Positions 2,777-19,453 of a DNA stretch of 40,202 nt are shown here, piece after piece (the stretch's first letter is position 1; the number at the start of each line of letters is the position of its first letter). The notes beneath the pieces are model-generated. The model made no database searches and was not told the origin of the DNA. It worked only from the letters and a program-made list of their open reading frames with translations. The position numbers and the translations under genes are program-made. The stretch comes from a virus (Duplodnaviria > Heunggongvirae > Uroviricota > Caudoviricetes). The stretch lies in IMG/VR virus record IMGVR_UViG_3300013121_000035, positions 1 through 40,202 of that record; one strand, written 5' to 3'.

Positions 2777-3121
2777 TCATCCCCGCCGCTTCTCCGGTTT
2801 GGCGTCCGGCTTGCCGGCCGAGGACCTGCCCGGCTTGCCCGGCGGCTTGCCCGCCGCGCTCGCCGGCGCCCCGGCAGCGTCCGCGTCGGCCTGTGCGCGT
2901 TTGGCCTCCACCTGCTCCAACCGTGCCGCCACCTGATCCGCCTGCGCCGCCAACCGCGCCAACGCGTCGGTCGCATCGGTCAACCGCCCGGTCGCGGTCG
3001 CCAGCTCCTGCTGCGCCGCGGCCAGCCGCTCACCCGCAGTCGTCAACGCCGCCTGCGCCGCGCGGCTGGGACGCGGGGAACGCCGCCGGTCGAAAAACCA
3101 CGGCCACGCTGCCACCATCAT
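2777..3121 (-). CDS. coiled-coil protein, possible lysis accessory
   Basis: RBS GAAGGGAG; N-terminal WPWFF then Ala-rich heptads; overlaps upstream gene by 4 nt. Confidence 0.65.
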   Translation of the reverse strand: MMVAAWPWFFDRRRSPRPSRAAQAALTTAGERLAAAQQELATATGRLTDATDALARLAAQADQVAARLEQVEAKRAQADADAAGAPASAAGKPPGKPGRSSAGKPDAKPEKRRG

Positions 3122-3429
3122 CGGCTCCCTTCGCGGGTGGCCCGCCGCGCGGCGCGGCGGGCCAACTCCGCATCGGCGCGCTCCAGCAACGCCACCGTCG
3201 TCTTGTGCTGCTCGATCGCCGCGTCCGCCCGCACGGTCTCCTTGCGCAACGCCTCACGGGTTTCCTCGTGGGCGGCCTGCTCCTTCTCAAACGCCTGCTT
3301 CCACCCGTCCACGTCACGGCGCAACTGCTCACCGACCCGCTTGGGGTCAAGGAACCCGGTCATGATCAGCAGCGCCAGCACCCCGCCAGCGCCCCAGGTC
3401 AACACCACCTGCATGATCGAGCCGTCCAC
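3118..3429 (-). CDS. single-TM coiled-coil protein, holin-like or lysis accessory
   Basis: TM segment VLTWGAGGVLALLIMTGFL followed by charged coiled coil; GTG 3429 (or ATG 3414). Confidence 0.6.
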   Translation of the reverse strand: MDGSIMQVVLTWGAGGVLALLIMTGFLDPKRVGEQLRRDVDGWKQAFEKEQAAHEETREALRKETVRADAAIEQHKTTVALLERADAELARRAARRATREGSR

Positions 3430-3490
3430 ACGCACCTGCCGTCGTAGGCCGGCCGGGCATCGCACCAGCCGCACGGTTGCTCTCCAGGTG

Positions 3491-3514
3491 ATCTCGGCGC
3501 GTCCGCCATGCCAA
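3491..3514 (-). promoter_or_regulatory. putative sigma28/WhiG-like promoter TTGG-N12-GCCGAGAT
   Basis: Motif match in divergent intergenic region, upstream of the 3429 gene. Confidence 0.55.
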
Positions 3515-3538
3515 TTCGTCGGACTCCACCGCCGATGA
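3515..3538 (+). promoter_or_regulatory. putative sigma28/WhiG-like promoter TTCG-N12-GCCGATGA
   Basis: Motif match upstream of the 3597 gene. Confidence 0.6.
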
Positions 3539-3541
3539 CCA

Positions 3542-3561
3542 ACAACAACAGACAACAACAG
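3542..3561 (+). repeat. perfect 10-bp tandem repeat ACAACAACAG x2
   Basis: 3542-3551 and 3552-3561 identical, over the predicted transcription start. Confidence 0.8.
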
Positions 3562-3596
3562 AGCGCACCCGCTCGTCGACGATGAAAGGTGGAGAC

Positions 3597-3845
3597 ATGG
3601 CCGAACCCGACACCAACGGCGGCGAGCAGCAAGGGCTGGCCGCCCAGCTCGGCGACCGCCCCATCAGCGGCGTCTCACCATCCCCAGCCGTCGCACGCCC
3701 CGACCAGCCGGTCTTCCCCCCGCCGATCTTCGCGCCCATCGCCGAAGTCGTCGTGGACGAAAGCAAGGCCCCAGCACCCCAGGCGCCGGCCGACCAGCCA
3801 GCCGAGGAGCCACCCGCGCCAGTCCAAGCACGCCGCCGGCGCTGA
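3597..3845 (+). CDS. Pro/Ala-rich hypothetical protein
   Basis: RBS AAAGGTGGAG before ATG 3597. Confidence 0.6.
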   Translation: MAEPDTNGGEQQGLAAQLGDRPISGVSPSPAVARPDQPVFPPPIFAPIAEVVVDESKAPAPQAPADQPAEEPPAPVQARRRR

Positions 3846-3868
3846 ACCGCCCAGAGCGAGGAGGAACC

Positions 3869-4306
3869 ATGACCGACGCCAACATCACCGACAACGAGCC
3901 CACCAAGGGCGGCGACCCGATCCGTGCGCAGTTCGGCGACCTGGACGAGACCATCGAGCTCGTCCGGTTCGTCTTCAGCGACCCCGCCGCCGGCACCGGC
4001 TCCTACCAGAGCCGCGTCAACCACGCGCTCGTCGAGCGGTTCCCCGGCCACGCCGCCAACATCTTCGAGCTGTTCCAGGCCGTGGACAACAACGACGACG
4101 CCGCCAAGCGCCGCGCCGTCGCCCAGGTCGTCAACGCAATGGCCGACGACCCCAGCACCACCGGCGACGACAAGGAACACGACCGCAACTGGGGGCGGCT
4201 GGCCCGCCAGAACCCCTCCGCGGCGATCGCGCTGCTCGGCCTGGGCATCTCAGCGCGCATCAACCACGTCGAAGGCGTCAAGTGGGCGCCCGCTGACGAC
4301 ATCTGA
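3869..4306 (+). CDS. hypothetical protein
   Basis: RBS GAGGAGGA; strong codon bias; 145 aa; no family recognised. Confidence 0.75.
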   Translation: MTDANITDNEPTKGGDPIRAQFGDLDETIELVRFVFSDPAAGTGSYQSRVNHALVERFPGHAANIFELFQAVDNNDDAAKRRAVAQVVNAMADDPSTTGDDKEHDRNWGRLARQNPSAAIALLGLGISARINHVEGVKWAPADDI

Positions 4307-4396
4307 TCTTCGCGGCATCCGCCGCACCACCGCGGCCCTGCCGCACCCACCGCGGCCCCGTCTGCTCGGCGGGGCCGCTCGCATCTGCCTGAAGCG

Positions 4397-6013
4397 ATGA
4401 GCATCCGCCGCGCCCTGCCCCTGCCCCAACCCGGCGACGCCGCCCCGCTCGGCCCGGTCGTCGCCGCGGTCGTGCTGTGCCCACTGCTCGTCCTCGGCGC
4501 GTTCAGCCTGCCGCTCAACACCGCGCTCCAAGCCGCCCTGCCCTACCTGGTCGCGTTCGCCTGCGGCGGGGGCCTGCTGCTCGCCGCCTGCCTGCACTGG
4601 ATCGCGCGCACCATCGACGACGACCAGCTGGACTTCCTCGGCGTCGTCTACCTCCTGGCCGCCCTCGGGGTGCTGCTGCGCGGTGTCGTCCTGCCGCAAA
4701 CCAGCGCCATCGGCAACGCCACCATCATCGGCTCCACTGACGCGTCGGCGCTGCTGACCCTGCTGTGGCACGCGCTGATCCCCATCGGCGCCCTGCTCGT
4801 CCTCGGCCGCCACGCCGCCCGCTACGGCTGGGCGCCAACCCTCACCCTCGGGGTGTTCACCGGCGCGGTCATGATCGCCATGCTCCCCCTGGGCGGCCCC
4901 GACCTCGCCGACCCCAACGGCGTCAAGACCACCCTCGGGGTCACCCTGGCAGTCAGCGTCGGCGCCCTCAGCGCCCTCGCCGCCATCCTGTGGGTCCGCG
5001 CCGGCAACCGCCGCCCCTACGGTCCCGACCCGTGGATCGCCGCCAACCTCATCCTGGTCAGCGCCGGGGTCTTGCTGTGGGCCATCGCCGGCCCCCGCTA
5101 CAGCCCCCTGTGGTGGGCGTCGCAATGCTGCGACGCCCTGGCGTTCATCACCGCCGGCGCCGGCCAGCTCCAAGCCGTCGCCCGCTTCCAGACCGCGATG
5201 AACAACTACGTCGCCAGCCAGCAAGTCCTGCGCCGCGCCCAACCCCGGCCCAGCATCGAACTCAGCGACGCCAGCAGCCAGACCAGCCGCGACGCGATCG
5301 CCGCGCTGATCACCCACCCCGATCAGATCACCATGCTCGTCCAGCCCATCGTCGACCTCACCAGCGGCCGGGTCGCCGGCGCCGAAACCCTCGCCCGCTT
5401 CACCCCCGACCCCACCCAGCCGCCAACCGCCTGGTTCGACGCCGCCCACGCTGCCGGGCTGGCCAGCGACCTGGAACTGCTCTGCGCCCGCGCCGCCCTG
5501 ACCCACCTGGGCGCCCTACCCAACGACCTGTACCTGTCGATCAACCTCAGCCCCACCACCCTGGCCCAGATGCACTCCATCGCCGACACCTTCACCGTCA
5601 CCGGCCGCGACTGGCGCCGCATCGTCGTCGAAGTCACCGAACAGCAGCTCATCGACGACTTCGCCCACCTCGGCGACCTGTTCACCCCCGCCCGCGACCT
5701 CGGCGTCCGCCTGGCCATCGACGACCTCGGCAGCGGCCAAGCCGGCCTGCAGCACGTGCTGTACCTGCGACCCGAAGTCATCAAGATCGACCAGTCCATC
5801 GTCCAAGCGGTCGACACCGACCCCTACTGCCGCGCGCTGATCGCCAGCCTCGTCGCGTTCACCAGCGCGATCGGCGCCAGCCTCGTCGCCGAAGGTGTCG
5901 AGACCGCCGCGCAACACCGCACCCTGGTCAGCCTCGGCGTCAGCTACGGCCAAGGGTTCCGGCTCGGGCGCCCCATGCGCGTCGAAGACCTGCGCGTCCG
6001 CCTGCAACCCTGA
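4397..6013 (+). CDS. membrane-bound EAL-domain c-di-GMP phosphodiesterase (MASE4-like N-terminus)
   Basis: Multi-TM N-terminus (LLWHALIP, RYSPLWWASQ); QPIVDL, GAETLARF, SINLSP, EVTE, DDLGSG, IKID, AEGVET, GQGF: catalytic E/N/E/DD/K/E/Q retained. Confidence 0.92.
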   Translation: MSIRRALPLPQPGDAAPLGPVVAAVVLCPLLVLGAFSLPLNTALQAALPYLVAFACGGGLLLAACLHWIARTIDDDQLDFLGVVYLLAALGVLLRGVVLPQTSAIGNATIIGSTDASALLTLLWHALIPIGALLVLGRHAARYGWAPTLTLGVFTGAVMIAMLPLGGPDLADPNGVKTTLGVTLAVSVGALSALAAILWVRAGNRRPYGPDPWIAANLILVSAGVLLWAIAGPRYSPLWWASQCCDALAFITAGAGQLQAVARFQTAMNNYVASQQVLRRAQPRPSIELSDASSQTSRDAIAALITHPDQITMLVQPIVDLTSGRVAGAETLARFTPDPTQPPTAWFDAAHAAGLASDLELLCARAALTHLGALPNDLYLSINLSPTTLAQMHSIADTFTVTGRDWRRIVVEVTEQQLIDDFAHLGDLFTPARDLGVRLAIDDLGSGQAGLQHVLYLRPEVIKIDQSIVQAVDTDPYCRALIASLVAFTSAIGASLVAEGVETAAQHRTLVSLGVSYGQGFRLGRPMRVEDLRVRLQP

Positions 6014-6029
6014 CCGCCAAGGAGCCCAC

Positions 6030-6371
6030 ATGGCCTACATCGCGCTTGCGCTCATCCAAGTGCTCATCGCCGCCGCCTACGTCGTCATCGGCGTCAGCGT
6101 GCTACCCCGCGTGCGCTTTGGCGCCGTGGCCGCCATGCTCGCGCTCGGCTTCTTCCTGCTGTGCGCCGGCACCCACTTCGACCTCGCACGCCACACCGCC
6201 CAACGCAACGACCCCGACCTCATCGCCCCCCACATGTGGGCGTTGCACGTCAGCCAAGCCGTGATCGACTGGGCGTTCATCTTCGCGGTCCGCCGCTGGA
6301 AGATCGAGATCCGCCGCCGCCCCCCCGACGAGCGGCGCTGGCTGCGGTTCCTCGACGACGACCACGGCTAG
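6030..6371 (+). CDS. stand-alone 3-TM protein resembling the ETR1-type ethylene/copper-binding domain
   Basis: RBS AAGGAG; LIAAAYVVI, GFFLLCAGTH (CxxxH), ALHVSQAVI align with ETR1 FIAIAYFSI, AFIVLCGATH, TAKVLTAVV. Confidence 0.7.
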   Translation: MAYIALALIQVLIAAAYVVIGVSVLPRVRFGAVAAMLALGFFLLCAGTHFDLARHTAQRNDPDLIAPHMWALHVSQAVIDWAFIFAVRRWKIEIRRRPPDERRWLRFLDDDHG

Positions 6372-7381
6372 CTGACCTGCCATCCTGTCCGGCCGCGCTT
6401 GGCCGCGTACATCGCCCGGTCCGCCGCGGCCAGCAGCGCCGCTGGTGTGGCCCGCTGTGCCGAGGACAGCGCGACCCCCACACTCATCGACACCCGCACC
6501 TCCACCCCCGCCCGCACCGGCCGCTCCAACCGGGCCATCAACCGGCGAACCACCACCTGCGCGTGCTCCGGCGAGCTGTTCTCCAGCAGCATCGCGAACT
6601 CGTCGCCCCCCAGCCGCGCGGCCGAGTCCGATTCGCGCAACCCCACCCGCAACCGGCGGGCGACCTCCACCAGCACCCGGTCGCCGACCTGATGGCCGAA
6701 CGTGTCATTGATCCGCTTGAAGTCATCCACGTCGGCGTACAGCAACGCCACCGTCGCCCCGGTCCGCCGCGCGCGTGCCAGCGCGTGCTCCAGCCGGTCC
6801 TCGAACAGCGTGCGGGCCAGCAGCCCCGTCAACTGGTCAGTCAGCAGCGTCTCGTTGAACCGCCACGAGATCAGGTACGGCAAGTTGGTCAACCCCACGA
6901 ACGTCACCTGCGCGATCACCACGATCAGCGGCTGCTGCAACGCCCCATGCGCGTACAGCGTCGCCGGCGCGATGAGCGCCGCGCCGGCCAGGAACACCGC
7001 GTACGCGCCGATCGCCACCAGGCACGGCAGCCACGCCTGATACAACGTGACCATCCCGATCGTGGCGAAGAAGTGCAGATGCCACAGCCCACCACCACCG
7101 AGCACCACCAGCAGCGCGCTGGAGCCCACCAACGCCGTCGAGCCCAACGCCATCCGCGCCCGGCGTGACTGCGCCCAATTCGCGCCCGCCGCGAGCGCCG
7201 CCAGCGCCAACGCCTCAGCCACGCCCAGCCGTGCCCGCCCCGTCACCACCCCGACCGCGATCAGCAGGGCCACGTGCGCCCAGATCACCATCACGATCCC
7301 ACGGTGTCGTGCGAGCAGCGCGCTGGACGGCAACATCTGCCCGCGCGGCACAATCCTGCGCACGCGTGCCCGCCAAGACAC
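6368..7381 (-). CDS. membrane-bound diguanylate cyclase (GGDEF)
   Basis: RBS AGGAG; TM N-terminus; DQLTGL, DVDDFKRINDTFGHQVGD, I-site RESD, RLGGDEF (GGDEF at 6596-6610). Confidence 0.95.
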   Translation of the reverse strand: MSWRARVRRIVPRGQMLPSSALLARHRGIVMVIWAHVALLIAVGVVTGRARLGVAEALALAALAAGANWAQSRRARMALGSTALVGSSALLVVLGGGGLWHLHFFATIGMVTLYQAWLPCLVAIGAYAVFLAGAALIAPATLYAHGALQQPLIVVIAQVTFVGLTNLPYLISWRFNETLLTDQLTGLLARTLFEDRLEHALARARRTGATVALLYADVDDFKRINDTFGHQVGDRVLVEVARRLRVGLRESDSAARLGGDEFAMLLENSSPEHAQVVVRRLMARLERPVRAGVEVRVSMSVGVALSSAQRATPAALLAAADRAMYAAKRGRTGWQVS

Positions 7382-7480
7382 CGATCCGACTCCTCAACAG
7401 TGAGCTGGGAATACTATCGACCTGACACTTTTCGCATTCGATCGGCACAACGGCCACGCGGCACGGCGGGGGAGGGCGCA

Positions 7481-7594
7481 ATGCCAGCAGCGAAATGCCC
7501 ACCACACGCCAAACGGCTGCGTCGCACCGCACGCACCTGGGAATGCCCACGCTGCGGGGAGGTCCTCGCTACCCAGGAACAGCTGCGCATCTGA
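7481..7594 (+). CDS. small Zn-ribbon-like protein
   Basis: RBS GGAGGG; C-x2-H ... WECPRCG; 37 aa. Confidence 0.4.
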   Translation: MPAAKCPPHAKRLRRTARTWECPRCGEVLATQEQLRI

Positions 7595-7653
7595 CCCGCG
7601 CCAGCACTGGCAACGGCCGTTATCATTGCGCTCGGCGACTGGGGGGGAGCCGC

Positions 7654-7854
7654 ATGAACCGCACGCGCCTGCGCGACTACGACCCGCACGTCCACATCGA
7701 CCTGTCCTGCCCGCACTGCGGCGCCAGCGGTGAGCTGTGCGGCTACCTGTCCATCGTCGGGCGGGTCGTCGGCCACGTCAGGCGCATCCTGTGCGCTCAC
7801 CCCGAGGACCTCGACGTGCGCTGCCGATCCGACGAGCCGTTCAGCCTCAACTAA
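7654..7854 (+). CDS. small Cys-rich hypothetical protein
   Basis: GGGGGAG RBS; CPHCG motif. Confidence 0.5.
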   Translation: MNRTRLRDYDPHVHIDLSCPHCGASGELCGYLSIVGRVVGHVRRILCAHPEDLDVRCRSDEPFSLN

Positions 7855-7857
7855 CCA

Positions 7858-7881
7858 CTCGACAACCACCCCGGCCGAGCG
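7858..7881 (+). promoter_or_regulatory. putative sigma28/WhiG-like promoter CTCG-N12-GCCGAGCG
   Basis: Motif match, intergenic, upstream of lexA-like gene. Confidence 0.45.
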
Positions 7882-7914
7882 CTACCCTGACTTAGCTAAT
7901 TTGAGTTCAGACGG

Positions 7915-8196
7915 GTGATGGGAGCGACGATGCCAGCCGGGAGCCGCCAAGCCATGCTCGCGGCCGCCGCCGACCGGCGCGAGCAGATGCTCGACTACAT
8001 CGACACCTACCACCGCCACCACGGCTTCTCCCCATCCATCCCCGAGATCAGCCAGCACTTCAACATCTCCACCGGCGTCACCCGCCACCACCTGCTGCAC
8101 CTCGAACGCGAAGGACGGCTGCGCCGCACCCCCGGCGTCCACCGCTCCTTCCAAGTCATCCACACGCCTGGGGGGGCACATGCACCGCGACGATGA
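7915..8196 (+). CDS. LexA-type N-terminal DNA-binding domain protein without peptidase domain
   Basis: RREQMLDYIDTYHRHHGFSPSIPEISQHF...HHLLHLEREGRLRRTPGVHRSF follows LexA wHTH pattern; start may be 7918 or 7930. Confidence 0.75.
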   Translation: MMGATMPAGSRQAMLAAAADRREQMLDYIDTYHRHHGFSPSIPEISQHFNISTGVTRHHLLHLEREGRLRRTPGVHRSFQVIHTPGGAHAPRR

Positions 8197-16426: not shown

Positions 16427-16695
16427 CGCCCGTTCCCAGCGACCCAGGCGGCAGCGACCACGGGTTCAGCGGCAAGACCCTGGCCGAGATCGACCCTGAG
16501 CAGCTCGCCCGGCTGTTCCACGAAACCTACGAGCGGCTCGCCCCAGCCCACGGCTACCAGACCCGCCTGGACTCCCGCCAACGCTGGGAGCACGTCCCCG
16601 CCAACAACCGGGCGCTCATGACCGCCACCGCCGCCGAAATCCTGCGCACTCTGCAGGCAGCCTGCGTGTGGCGCGAACCGCGCGGCCGGCGATGA
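16423..16695 (+). CDS. hypothetical phage protein
   Basis: LARLFHETYERLAP...WEHVP; overlapping neighbours. Confidence 0.65.
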   Translation: MTPVPSDPGGSDHGFSGKTLAEIDPEQLARLFHETYERLAPAHGYQTRLDSRQRWEHVPANNRALMTATAAEILRTLQAACVWREPRGRR

Positions 16696-17474
16696 GCGCC
16701 AGCAGCCCCGGCCGCGGCACCTGGACCACCCGTGGCGGCACCGTCACCGCTGACGGCACCCAACCCGGCGTGTACTACGCGCTCGCCGCCGGCCGCCCCC
16801 TGGTCGGCCAGGCCAGCGGCAGTGTTGACCTGTGGGCCGTCAACCGTGGCGTGCGCGCCATCCAGACCGCCCTGGCACGCACCGGCCAGACCCTGACCAT
16901 CGACGGGATCTTCGGCCCGCGGACCAAAACGGCGGTCGTCGCGTTCCAGCAAACCCAAGGCGCCGTCCGCGTCGGCGCCGCCGACGGGGTCGTCGGCCCC
17001 CGCACCGCCACCTGGCTGTTCCTGGCCCACGTCAAGCTCATCCAGCAGCTGCTGGCGATCCCCAGCAACCTGCTGTACGGCCTGCTCGCCCACGAGAGCA
17101 GCTTCGACCCTGGCGCGGTCGGCGCCAACGTCGTCGCCCCCGCCGACCGGCTCCTGCCAGAAAACGACCTGTTGCGCGCCGGGGAACCAGCCGATCTGGG
17201 CATCGGCCAGCTCAACCTGTACTGGAATCCGGTGTGCACTCGCGACCAGGCGATGCAGCCGTTCCCGACCGGCGAGTGGCCCGGCACGATCCGCTTCGCC
17301 GGCAACCACCTCGCCGACGCGCTGGTGCACTACAAGCTGGTCGACGCCGCGATCTGCTCCTACAACAGCCCCGTCCGCGCCCAAGCGTGGGACACCACTG
17401 GCGCCGCCCCCGACGAGCGGGCCGCCAGCTACGTCGCGGCCGTGTGGACCCAAGCCAAGGCGTGCCCGCTATGA
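16692..17474 (+). CDS. endolysin-like protein: peptidoglycan-binding domain plus lytic transglycosylase
   Basis: VRAIQTAL...IDGIFGPRTKTAVVAFQ...DGVVGPRT, then HESSFDPGA, GIGQL, AICSYN. Confidence 0.85.
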   Translation: MSASSPGRGTWTTRGGTVTADGTQPGVYYALAAGRPLVGQASGSVDLWAVNRGVRAIQTALARTGQTLTIDGIFGPRTKTAVVAFQQTQGAVRVGAADGVVGPRTATWLFLAHVKLIQQLLAIPSNLLYGLLAHESSFDPGAVGANVVAPADRLLPENDLLRAGEPADLGIGQLNLYWNPVCTRDQAMQPFPTGEWPGTIRFAGNHLADALVHYKLVDAAICSYNSPVRAQAWDTTGAAPDERAASYVAAVWTQAKACPL

Positions 17475-18074: not shown

Positions 18075-18419
18075 GTGCCCAAGCCAGCCACGCTCAACTT
18101 GGAGCTCTACCAGGGCGACTACTTCGAGCTGGCCGTCACGCTCTACGAGGTCGACGGGACCACCCCCAGGAACCTGACGGGCATGACGCCACGCGCCCAG
18201 GTTCGCACCACCGCGGAGGACTCCACCGTCCTGTTGGAGTTCGATATCACCATCGACGACGACCCCACCACCGGCCAGCTCACCCTCAGCGCCGCGTCCG
18301 CGCAGACCGCGCTGCTGCCCAAGAAGGCCGTGTGGGACTTCCAGCTCACCGACGCCGGCGACCGCACCCGCACCTACCTGCGCGGCAGTGTGGTGGCCAC
18401 CCGCGAGGTCACCCGCTGA
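18075..18419 (+). CDS. virion structural adaptor (LtfC/BppU-N-like), paralogue 1
   Basis: [25 protein letters not shown]; paralogous to 25502-25867. Confidence 0.7.
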
Positions 18420-19453
18420 TGGCCGACCCTGACGTCGTCGTCAACGTCACCCAAGCTGGTGACAACGTGCTGTCGGCCGTCGCCGACGGTGACGTTGTCA
18501 TCCTCGTTGAGGAGGTCAGCGCCGGCCCGCCAGGGGCGCAAGGTGACCCGGGACCACCCGGGGAGCAGGGCGAACCTGGCCCGCCCGGCGAGCCTGGGGA
18601 GCAGGGCGAACCCGGTCCGCCTGGTGAGCCCGGCGAGCCCGGTGAGCCCGGCGCCCCCGGCGACAAGGGCGACAAGGGCGATCAGGGTGACCCTGGTCCG
18701 CAAGGCGACCCTGGTCCGCAAGGTGATCCCGGCCCAGAAGGCACGTTCTCGATGGTCAGCCTCGACGCCGACTTCGACGTCGACGCCGCACCCGCCGCCG
18801 ACTACGAGCTGCGACCCGAGATCGACTACGCGAGCGCCACCACCGCCGACGTCGGCTACGCGCTCAACCTCGCCAAGAAGAACATCAGCGCGGTGGTCGA
18901 CGTGCTGCACCGCGCGGTCAACGCCGCGCAAGGCCCCCAAGGTGACCCGGGGCCTCCTGGCGCGGCGGTCGACCCTGACGACTACATCTACGCCTGGCGC
19001 GAGGCCCCCTACACCCTGAGCGTCGTCGGCCAGACCTACCCGATGACCTGGGACACCGTCAACGACGACTACCTGGGCGCCTCCTTCGACGTCCCCGGCG
19101 TCGGCGACGGCTCCATCGTCGTGCGCGTCATCCAGCCAGGCTGGTTCGTCGTCGCCGGCCTGGTCAAGTTCGCCGCGACCAACAGCGACGACGACCAGGT
19201 CGGCGGCACCCGCGAGATCCTCATCTCCGGCAGCGGCGTGAGCGGCTGGAACGCCATCACCGTCCTGCCGAGCTCCCAGAGTCCCGTGCTCAGTGCCCAG
19301 GTCATCACCGAGGTCACCCAGGCAGACATCGACGCGTGGGATTCCAACAACCCCACGGCCGGCGCCAGTGTCGTACAGGTCAACGCCCGGCAGGTTACCG
19401 GCGGACCCCTGGACGTCATCAGCGCCGAGGTCATGGTCAAGAGGCTGACATGA
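18419..19453 (+). CDS. collagen-like fibre protein with C-terminal beta-sandwich head
   Basis: 24 uninterrupted Gly-X-Y triplets at 18524-18742 plus a short second run. Confidence 0.8.

Follow-up and report, generated by a model that had tools for sequence, protein, structure and literature searches.

The question raised by this locus is whether a small membrane protein encoded between two c-di-GMP genes of a phage is a detached relative of the transmembrane domain of the ethylene receptor ETR1, and what such a protein might do for the phage. The window, i.e., the whole stretch of 40,202 nucleotides that we analyzed, comprises the first 40 kb of an IMG/VR record that is 104,202 bp long, is rated complete and has a GC content of ~69%. 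A preliminary description made from the sequence had read the open reading frame at 6030-6371 (+) as a stand-alone ETR1-type domain acting in trans, plausibly on the neighboring EAL or GGDEF protein. Our analysis confirms the observation behind this proposal and partly supports its interpretation. We label the 113-aa product of this frame P0001. The relevant genes and signals are the following.

4397..6013, + strand: EAL gene encoding a 538-aa protein with a multi-helix membrane domain of ~290 aa and an EAL domain (Pfam EAL, 6.6e-45)
6019..6024, + strand: ribosome-binding site AAGGAG, read from the sequence, with the ATG 5 nt downstream
6030..6371, + strand: P0001 gene, from its translation, with stop codon TAG at 6369-6371 and 36 homologues at E<1e-3
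6368..7381, - strand: GGDEF gene encoding a 337-aa protein with a membrane domain and a GGDEF domain (Pfam, 3.2e-45), convergent with the P0001 gene

The frame at 6030-6371 is a genuine gene. Its GC content at the three codon positions is 0.70, 0.43 and 0.94, a coding signature for a genome of about 70% GC, and this signature together with the ribosome-binding site establishes that the gene is real. The EAL gene lies upstream on the same strand, with a gap of 16 nt to the P0001 start, and the TAG of the P0001 gene overlaps the stop of the convergent GGDEF gene. P0001 thus ends without an output domain, as had been described, and the EAL and GGDEF assignments of the two neighbors also held up in Pfam.

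Three hydrophobic helices had been noticed in the translation, and the same three appear in an AlphaFold2 model made with the family alignment (pLDDT 92, pTM 0.78). The segments of the protein are as follows, with residues numbered in P0001.

6033..6110, + strand: helix 1, residues 2-27 (AlphaFold2 pLDDT>90), with Q10 at the position of ETR1 Asp25, Y17 at Tyr32 and I20 at Ile35 in the hhalign register
6123..6203, + strand: helix 2, residues 32-58 (AlphaFold2 pLDDT>90), with F41-F42, C45, T48, H49 and the family-specific H55
6162..6176, + strand: codons of C45-A-G-T48-H49, the counterpart of the copper(I) site C65-x-x-T68-H69 of ETR1
6228..6299, + strand: helix 3, residues 67-90 (AlphaFold2 pLDDT>90), with the family-specific residues H68-M69, H73, Q76, D80-W81 and F83
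6324..6365, + strand: Arg-rich, predicted cytoplasmic tail with a short helix at residues 99-112 (AlphaFold2 pLDDT 66-81), variable among relatives in alignment A1

P0001 is richest in Arg and Lys in loop 1 and in the tail, from which the positive-inside rule predicts an N-out/C-in orientation of the three transmembrane helices. Searches with the model were not informative about its identity: Foldseek against the PDB gave no match at E<=0.001, a wide VIA-align search gave only generic helical bundles with Z<8, a shape search of the ESM Atlas returned generic hairpins, and a fold search of BFVD yielded only non-significant rows. A sequence search of the PDB with the family profile matched nothing, and neither the fold nor the sequence searches of the PDB returned a solved structure of the ETR1 membrane domain.

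Word-index protein searches with P0001 found only P0001 itself. When 1.84 billion representatives were searched exhaustively with phmmer at a threshold of E<1e-3, a family of 36 members emerged, whose alignment we call A1. Three residues (F41, T48 and Q76) are invariant across the 36 members and eight further positions are kept in at least 90% of them, so that 11 polar or aromatic residues within the membrane vary little or not at all. In helix 1, Y17 is found in 35/36 members, I20 is Ile in 19/36 and mostly Leu, Val or Met in the remainder, and the G21 column holds Gly or Ala. Position 10 is Asn in 29 members, Gln in 3 (P0001 among these), Ser in 2, Cys in 1 and Ala in 1, and never Asp or Glu. 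In helix 2, the copper-site counterpart has C45 in 35/36, T48 in 36/36 and H49 in 35/36, and H55 is present in 33/36. Helix 3 has the family motif H-M-x-x-I-H-x-x-Q-A-x-x-x-W-x-F (H68 in 34/36, H73 in 34/36, Q76 in 36/36, W81 in 28/36 and F83 in 35/36) and no conserved Lys or Arg.

Eight members of the family are longer, and in each the module is located at the N-terminus. It precedes HisKA/HATPase domains in P0002, P0010, P0013 and P0030, with a receiver as well in one kinase; it precedes PAS-SpoIIE in P0005 and P0006, one of which also has an anti-sigma-type ATPase; and in P0007 it is followed by PAS-PAS-GAF-GAF-GGDEF-HD-GYP. These N-terminal fusions to kinases, phosphatases and a GGDEF/HD-GYP protein indicate that the module behaves as a membrane input domain. 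Among the genomes sampled, the module is infrequent and occurs only in fused form, in 4/401 genomes of a phylum-level sample and 2/401 of a class-level sample. The genomic fused forms are open frames of 630-830 aa in Thermoleophilia-type genomes, two of them metagenome-assembled genomes of Miltoncostaeaceae and Solirubrobacteraceae. NCBIfam, PADLOC and PHROGs contain no family for P0001 or its relatives (nine relatives in the case of PHROGs). A similarity to HupE/UreJ scored 16.9 bits, below the cut-off, in 1/36 members, and we discarded it as a chance resemblance between transmembrane segments.

We then considered the relationship to the Pfam family ETR1_N (PF25487), whose curated cut-off is 27 bits. 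P0001 itself does not match ETR1_N at E<=1, and a search of the whole record with PF25487 gave no candidate at E<=10. Among the 36 family members, PF25487 is matched by 9 at E<=1, with a best value of 1.2e-4, and no other family recurs. For a more sensitive comparison, we used as seed a bona fide genome protein that scores 98.8 bits to PF25487 and has the layout ETR1_N-PAS-GGDEF-EAL. A precomputed PF25487 assignment is carried by 31/32 of the seed's relatives, and 17 of these domains were aligned as a reference. Aligning A1 to the 17 PF25487 domains with hhalign gave a probability of 93.1% and an E-value of 3.3e-7 over 59 columns covering helices 1-2. The 23 controls gave 0.3% for reversed profiles, 0.2% for the unrelated EAL membrane domain and at most 5% for 20 column shuffles. 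In addition, each of the 17 true ETR1_N domains was matched by the A1 profile, with scores of 11-24 bits, over helices 1-2 and in the same register, while P0001 alone scored 5.8 bits against a profile built from the 17 true members. The similarity is thus seen at the family level, where it is far above chance, and the single P0001 sequence is insufficient to reveal it.

In the register of this alignment, Q10 shares a column with Asp/Asn, Y17 and I20 coincide with Tyr and Ile, G21 is on the column that in plants is Pro36, and C45-x-x-T48-H49 is aligned column for column with C-G-x-T-H of the 17 ETR1_N domains. It is the same register that had been given in the preliminary description, which had paired Y32 with Y17, I35 with I20, C65xxxH69 with C45xxxH49, D25 with Q10 and P36 with G21. 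The Pro36 column is Ser in the 17 bacterial PF25487 members, so Pro36 is not universal in that family either. The hhalign match ends after helix 2, and helix 3 cannot be aligned to helix 3 of ETR1_N, so that the pairing of K91 with H73 in the preliminary description falls outside the match. Judged from these profiles, homology of P0001 to the ETR1-type transmembrane domain is supported over helices 1-2. The claim that this is an ETR1-type domain consequently stands for the first two helices, the copper motif and the Tyr, but not for the Pfam threshold, helix 3 or Lys91; similarly, the suggested check against profiles and folds of the ETR1 family succeeded with profiles and gave nothing in the PDB.

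The features that P0001 and its relatives share with ETR1_N extend beyond the profile match. Both would have three transmembrane helices in an N-out/C-in orientation, as in ETR1, SynEtr1 of Synechocystis and AzoEtr1 of Azospirillum; helix 1 follows the pattern (D/N)-x-x-I-A/G-x-A-Y-x-x-I and helix 2 the pattern F-F/I-x-x-C-x-x-T-H, in register; and both serve as the N-terminal input of signaling proteins, GGDEF/EAL enzymes included. Counterparts of Tyr32, Ile35, Cys65, Thr68 and His69 are present. However, P0001 scores below the cut-off, the Asp25 column of its family never holds Asp, and Pro36 is replaced. Its helix 3 has no Lys91 and instead presents H68-M69, H73 and Q76, to which the extra H55 is added. 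P0001 also lacks the N-terminal dimerizing cysteines and an attached output domain. We conclude that the P0001 family is probably an unnamed, divergent branch of the ETR1_N superfamily, with a ligand that is probably other than ethylene.

A set of cellular three-helix proteins is matched by both the PF25487 and the A1 profiles, and these proteins bridge the two groups. The bridge proteins (loci L007-L010 and L013) have ~170-190 aa and, like P0001, consist of the same three-helix module without an enzymatic output. They differ from P0001 in being cellular, in having a C-A-V-G/H-H motif, and in carrying a DHp-like stalk (EINDNIVQGL) that lacks both the His and an ATPase; by comparison with this kinase-type stalk, the tail of P0001 is only 25 residues long. 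A more distant analogy is the MHYT domain (PF03707), a proposed copper-dependent gas sensor of GGDEF/EAL proteins that has six helices, three Met-His-Tyr-Thr repeats, and conserved His and Met residues near the outer face of the membrane. MHYT domains thus resemble P0001 in being integral-membrane input modules with outer-face His/Met residues that are coupled to c-di-GMP enzymes; a Pfam search found no MHYT match for P0001 or its relatives.

Given this relationship, we considered what P0001 might bind. In the current model of ETR1, C65, H69 and T68 contact the copper, and Asp25 polarizes His69 and bridges to Lys91 (PMC10266040, PMC11971883). Because two elements of the ETR1 copper(I) site, the Cys-x-x-Thr-His motif of helix 2 and the Tyr of helix 1, are retained in P0001, we infer that the protein has a buried metal site, with copper as the most likely metal. 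In the helix positions of the model, Q10, H49 and H73/Q76 would lie at a similar depth in the outer leaflet, and H55 and H68-M69 would lie at the outer face, forming a His/His/Met trio that would be well placed for copper capture, metal entry or a second metal site. It is important to consider, though, that ETR1 with D25N or D25Q shows minimal copper binding in vitro and ethylene binding that is undetectable in yeast (PMC10266040), so a copper site in P0001 is not assured. The extra His residues of the family could equally bind another metal or haem.

The Asp25 position deserves particular attention, since it is occupied by Asp in 93.55% and by Asn in 3.67% of 1,221 domains (PMC10266040). In ETR1, the Asp25 carboxylate and the Lys91 bridge account for the nanomolar affinity for ethylene and for relay of the signal. 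In the P0001 family these elements are replaced, by Asn/Gln at the Asp25 position and by the set H55, H68-M69, H73 and Q76. Since the Asp25 and Lys91 elements are replaced, high-affinity sensing of ethylene seems unlikely, and the cue is more likely to be the copper or redox state, or a small gas that is bound weakly. The earlier suggestion that the Asp-to-Gln change implies a different ligand or geometry is in agreement with the behavior of ETR1 D25Q. The bacterial receptor AzoEtr1 has been studied with a 14C-ethylene binding assay after expression in yeast or Pichia (PMC11819568).

Most of the stand-alone copies that we examined are located in phage contigs, and P0004 alone is in a setting that does not look like a phage. 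P0016 (locus L021) belongs to a series of membrane-protein genes that starts immediately behind a pair of peptidoglycan hydrolase genes and is followed by Lsr2 and an integrase. P0015 is found among DUF932 and SSB genes, P0023 near head-tail connector genes, and P0020 next to a class II ribonucleotide reductase. P0027 has PHROG endonuclease and peptidase genes around it, and P0032 adjoins a tail-spike-like gene. Four IMG/VR contigs contain members: in two, the member is located downstream of the gene for the major capsid protein, which it follows directly in L029; in the third, it is near a capsid gene on the opposite strand; and in the fourth (L027), it follows tail-collar/CBM genes and lies among membrane and coiled-coil genes. 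These other stand-alone copies occupy head, tail or lysis-side positions, and they are not beside c-di-GMP genes. The membrane and coiled-coil proteins that neighbor different stand-alone copies have no sequence similarity to one another.

In a maximum-likelihood tree, two large clades consist entirely of stand-alone proteins. P0001 belongs to neither, but is in a mixed clade that is made up mostly of fused cellular sensors. Its neighbor there is P0002 (SH-aLRT 88), a cellular histidine kinase whose N-terminal module is also the closest relative of P0001 (47% identity, E 1e-16). Assigning fused or loose states to the tree requires at least 4 changes, as against 11.4 when the labels are shuffled. 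Because P0001 is placed among fused cellular sensors, it looks as though it was excised from a cellular sensor protein in a separate event, and fairly recently.

The surroundings of the cassette are those of a phage. To its left, there is an excisionase/HTH-like gene at 1882. To its right are genes for a phrog_3502 protein, a VRR-NUC-type endonuclease, the large terminase and a head decoration protein, together with a frame of 2,096 aa, the size of a tape measure; beyond this frame there is a DnaB-primase gene, and the right end has a PAPS-reductase-like gene. Because genes of phage type flank the cassette on both sides, we take P0001 to be encoded by the phage. A frame at 3118-3417 (-), 2.6 kb from P0001, encodes a transmembrane segment and a coiled coil. 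The whole record contains no predicted tRNA. When positions 3400-8000 were scanned, neither a sigma-70-like promoter nor a terminator separating the convergent genes was found, although such a scan is uninformative for an actinophage.

Searches of IMG/VR and of GenBank phages found the three-gene arrangement of EAL, P0001 and GGDEF in no other phage. IMG/VR contains no close relative of P0001 or of the EAL protein, tblastn against GenBank phages gave no match to P0001 or P0016, a DNA search of GenBank phages with the cassette region gave a single weak and unrelated match, and a first scan of GTDB found no close relative of P0001 or of the cassette. Cellular relatives of the EAL protein's membrane domain, themselves attached to EAL, were found in 8/401 searched genomes, at 11 loci. 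The flanks of ~1.5 kb of these 11 loci in 8 genomes contain no P0001-like frame, and we therefore regard the pairing of P0001 with the EAL gene as not conserved. A complex prediction for the EAL membrane domain (alignment A7) with P0001 (A1) had a score of 0.00, which is evidence neither for nor against an interaction.

How, then, might P0001 act? The reading that we prefer, tentatively and with somewhat less than even confidence, is that P0001 is a detachable input module with an intramembrane metal site, which would modulate, within the membrane, the EAL enzyme that is co-transcribed with it and possibly also the GGDEF enzyme. The phage would have in P0001 a working, stand-alone version of an intramembrane sensor module with three helices; in cells, this module forms the N-terminal input of kinases, of PP2C phosphatases and of a GGDEF/HD-GYP enzyme. 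Having been cut loose, the module would be co-transcribed with a membrane-anchored EAL phosphodiesterase and would face a membrane-bound GGDEF cyclase. Acting on these two enzymes as an input or modulator subunit in its own right, it could tie c-di-GMP turnover driven by the phage to a sensed signal, presumably in an actinobacterial host.

This reading is based on three observations: the layout of the operon, the GGDEF, EAL and HD-GYP fusions found elsewhere, and the fact that Pfam recognizes no sensor domain in the EAL or GGDEF neighbor. The link to c-di-GMP by fusion is provided within the family by P0007 and among bona fide ETR1_N proteins by the ETR1_N-PAS-GGDEF-EAL proteins P0041-P0043. 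In the 337-aa cyclase, both the GGDEF motif and an RESD I-site (RxxD) can be read in the translation. Action of P0001 on the EAL enzyme is thus plausible. However, the reading is weakened by the cellular relatives of the EAL protein, which occur without the small gene, and by the lack of a second phage cassette. We consider a broader version to be rather doubtful; according to this version, tailed phages of actinobacteria repeatedly excise the copper-site module, and the present phage uses it as the input subunit of its own membrane EAL and GGDEF enzymes.

The location of most examined stand-alone copies in phages raises alternatives that are specific to phages. One of these, to which we assign a low probability, is a function on the side of lysis or membrane permeabilization: P0001 would oligomerize as a holin-like or ion-conducting element, or regulate such an element, and the metal site would be a trigger or incidental. 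P0001 does resemble class I holins, e.g., those of the lambda S type, in being a phage membrane protein of ~100 aa with three helices, an apparent N-out/C-in topology and a highly charged C-terminal tail. The position of P0016 directly after two peptidoglycan hydrolase genes and before an integrase module is what such a function would predict, as is the position of the L027 member after tail-collar/CBM genes and among membrane and coiled-coil genes, and for P0001 itself the frame at 3118-3417 (-) is only 2.6 kb away. Moreover, a preprint reports that ETR1 and ERS1 conduct Ca2+ (10.1101/2025.10.20.683334). However, it is P0016 (L021) and not P0001 that adjoins lysis genes; the peptidoglycan-binding gene nearest to P0001 is at 16668-17471, 10 kb distant, and P0001 is inside a c-di-GMP cassette. 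Its clade is dominated by fused cellular sensors and lies outside the large clades that are entirely stand-alone, and no holin family in Pfam, PHROGs or NCBIfam is matched. The eleven conserved polar residues within the membrane, with Cys, His, Gln and Tyr inside the helices, are atypical of holins, and P0001 further differs from these in having cellular homologues fused to signaling enzymes. Somewhat less probable again is a decoy, in which the loose module would pair in the membrane with host signaling proteins containing the same module (kinases, SpoIIE phosphatases or GGDEF/HD-GYP proteins) and would block their signaling, or bias it, during infection. ETR1-type domains act as homodimers (PMC10266040, PMC11971883), the closest relative of P0001 is the N-terminal module of the cellular kinase P0002, the module has been cut loose at least 4 times on the tree, and the stand-alone copies examined are mostly in phage contigs. 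On the other hand, fused forms occur in just 4/401 and 2/401 sampled genomes, and a decoy leaves the placement between EAL and GGDEF genes unexplained.

The same affinity to a fused kinase on the tree could also mean that P0001 is a remnant, i.e., a 5' fragment of a host sensor-kinase gene that was acquired along with the c-di-GMP genes and is under no selection. P0001 is the sole sequence of its 90% cluster. Yet every residue that is invariant in the family is kept, the ribosome-binding site is strong, the clean start agrees with the N-termini of the family, and third-position GC is 0.94. An ordered C-terminal helix follows helix 3, and stand-alone forms recur across many phage contigs. These properties make a remnant improbable. 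We regard as least likely of all, and very improbable, that P0001 is a true ethylene receptor that binds ethylene via Cu(I) and allows the phage to sense ethylene from plants or microbes. The counterparts of Cys-x-x-Thr-His, Tyr and Ile are conserved in register, and Asn at the Asp25 position is compatible with function, as ETR1 D25N is functional in planta at ~100-fold lower affinity (PMC11971883). P0001, though, has Gln at this position, and ETR1 D25Q has no detectable ethylene binding (PMC10266040). There is also no counterpart of Lys91, the Pfam score is below the cut-off, and both Asp25 and Pro36 are changed among seven residues that are required in ETR1.

To our knowledge, receptor kinases and related enzymes are the only proteins in which ethylene-binding domains occur, always at the input end. 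The literature that we searched includes no paper tying such domains to bacteriophages. If the broader, rather doubtful version of the input-module reading is true, a membrane-soluble cue (copper or redox state, or a gas) would set host c-di-GMP levels, and with them host development, during infection, and the phage would encode a split sensor-enzyme system for a second messenger. The loose copies in phages suggest that viruses exploit the module. The position of P0001 between EAL and GGDEF enzymes that are apparently active makes it a testable case of control of c-di-GMP by a phage. A branch that keeps the copper-site helix pair and has a His/Gln network in place of the Asp25-Lys91 relay would show which cues other than ethylene this ancient metal-site fold is able to sense. 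The branch also offers minimal proteins of 105-160 residues for structural work.

Cellular proteins of about 170-190 aa, encoded at loci L007, L008/L019, L009, L010 and L013, begin with three helices that form an ETR1_N-like module. A helix resembling a kinase stalk (EINDNIVQGL) comes next, with neither a phospho-accepting His nor an ATPase. Because they are matched both by PF25487 (Pfam ETR1_N, the ethylene-binding domain) and by the profile of the P0001 family, to which the phage's 113-aa stand-alone protein belongs, these proteins bridge the two groups.

Residues that link helices 1 and 3 in ETR1 are altered even among bona fide ETR1_N-PAS-GGDEF-EAL proteins (P0041-P0047). In this group, the Asp25 column holds Asn, except for Ser in one protein, and helix 3 has Leu-Trp where most bacterial ETR1_N members have Lys. 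This joint change is consistent with the published Asp25-Lys91 coupling.

Stand-alone family members lie downstream of the major capsid gene in two viral contigs, where late 'moron' genes with high expression are typically located. In three phage contigs, they are adjoined by genes encoding a coiled coil, either alone or with a single helix, and P0001 has an ORF of this kind at a distance of 2.6 kb. These coiled-coil genes have a common architecture, but sequence similarity among those of L021, L027, L029 and the window is not detectable. The features are as follows.

L026, 813-2075: major capsid gene
L026, 2895-3236: stand-alone member, two small genes later
L029, 2981-3994: major capsid gene
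L029, 4079-4384: stand-alone member, directly after it
L029, 4703-5344: coiled-coil-type gene
L021, 4714-5073 and 5220-5744: coiled-coil-type genes
L027, about 7480-7974: coiled-coil-type gene
Window, 3118-3417 (-): similar coiled-coil-type ORF
Window, 4397-5290: membrane domain (~290 aa) of the EAL protein

This last domain, encoded upstream of P0001, matched no Pfam family. Of 401 genomes sampled, 8 encode cellular relatives that share its TM-EAL layout at 23-29% identity, with conserved Trp-rich motifs (W-W-A-S).

Elsewhere in the record, a PG_binding_1 protein (window 16668-17471) is 35% identical to the SLT-like lysin of L021, and its gene is located in the head-side structural region, not after the tail genes. 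The structural module also encodes a protein of 373 aa that contains collagen triple-helix repeats (window 18332-19450; Pfam Collagen, E 9e-17). The phage's right arm carries a phosphoadenosine-phosphosulfate-reductase-like gene (phrog_424, E 8e-25) at 99126-99803 (-) of the full record G000, i.e., L032 19126-19803.
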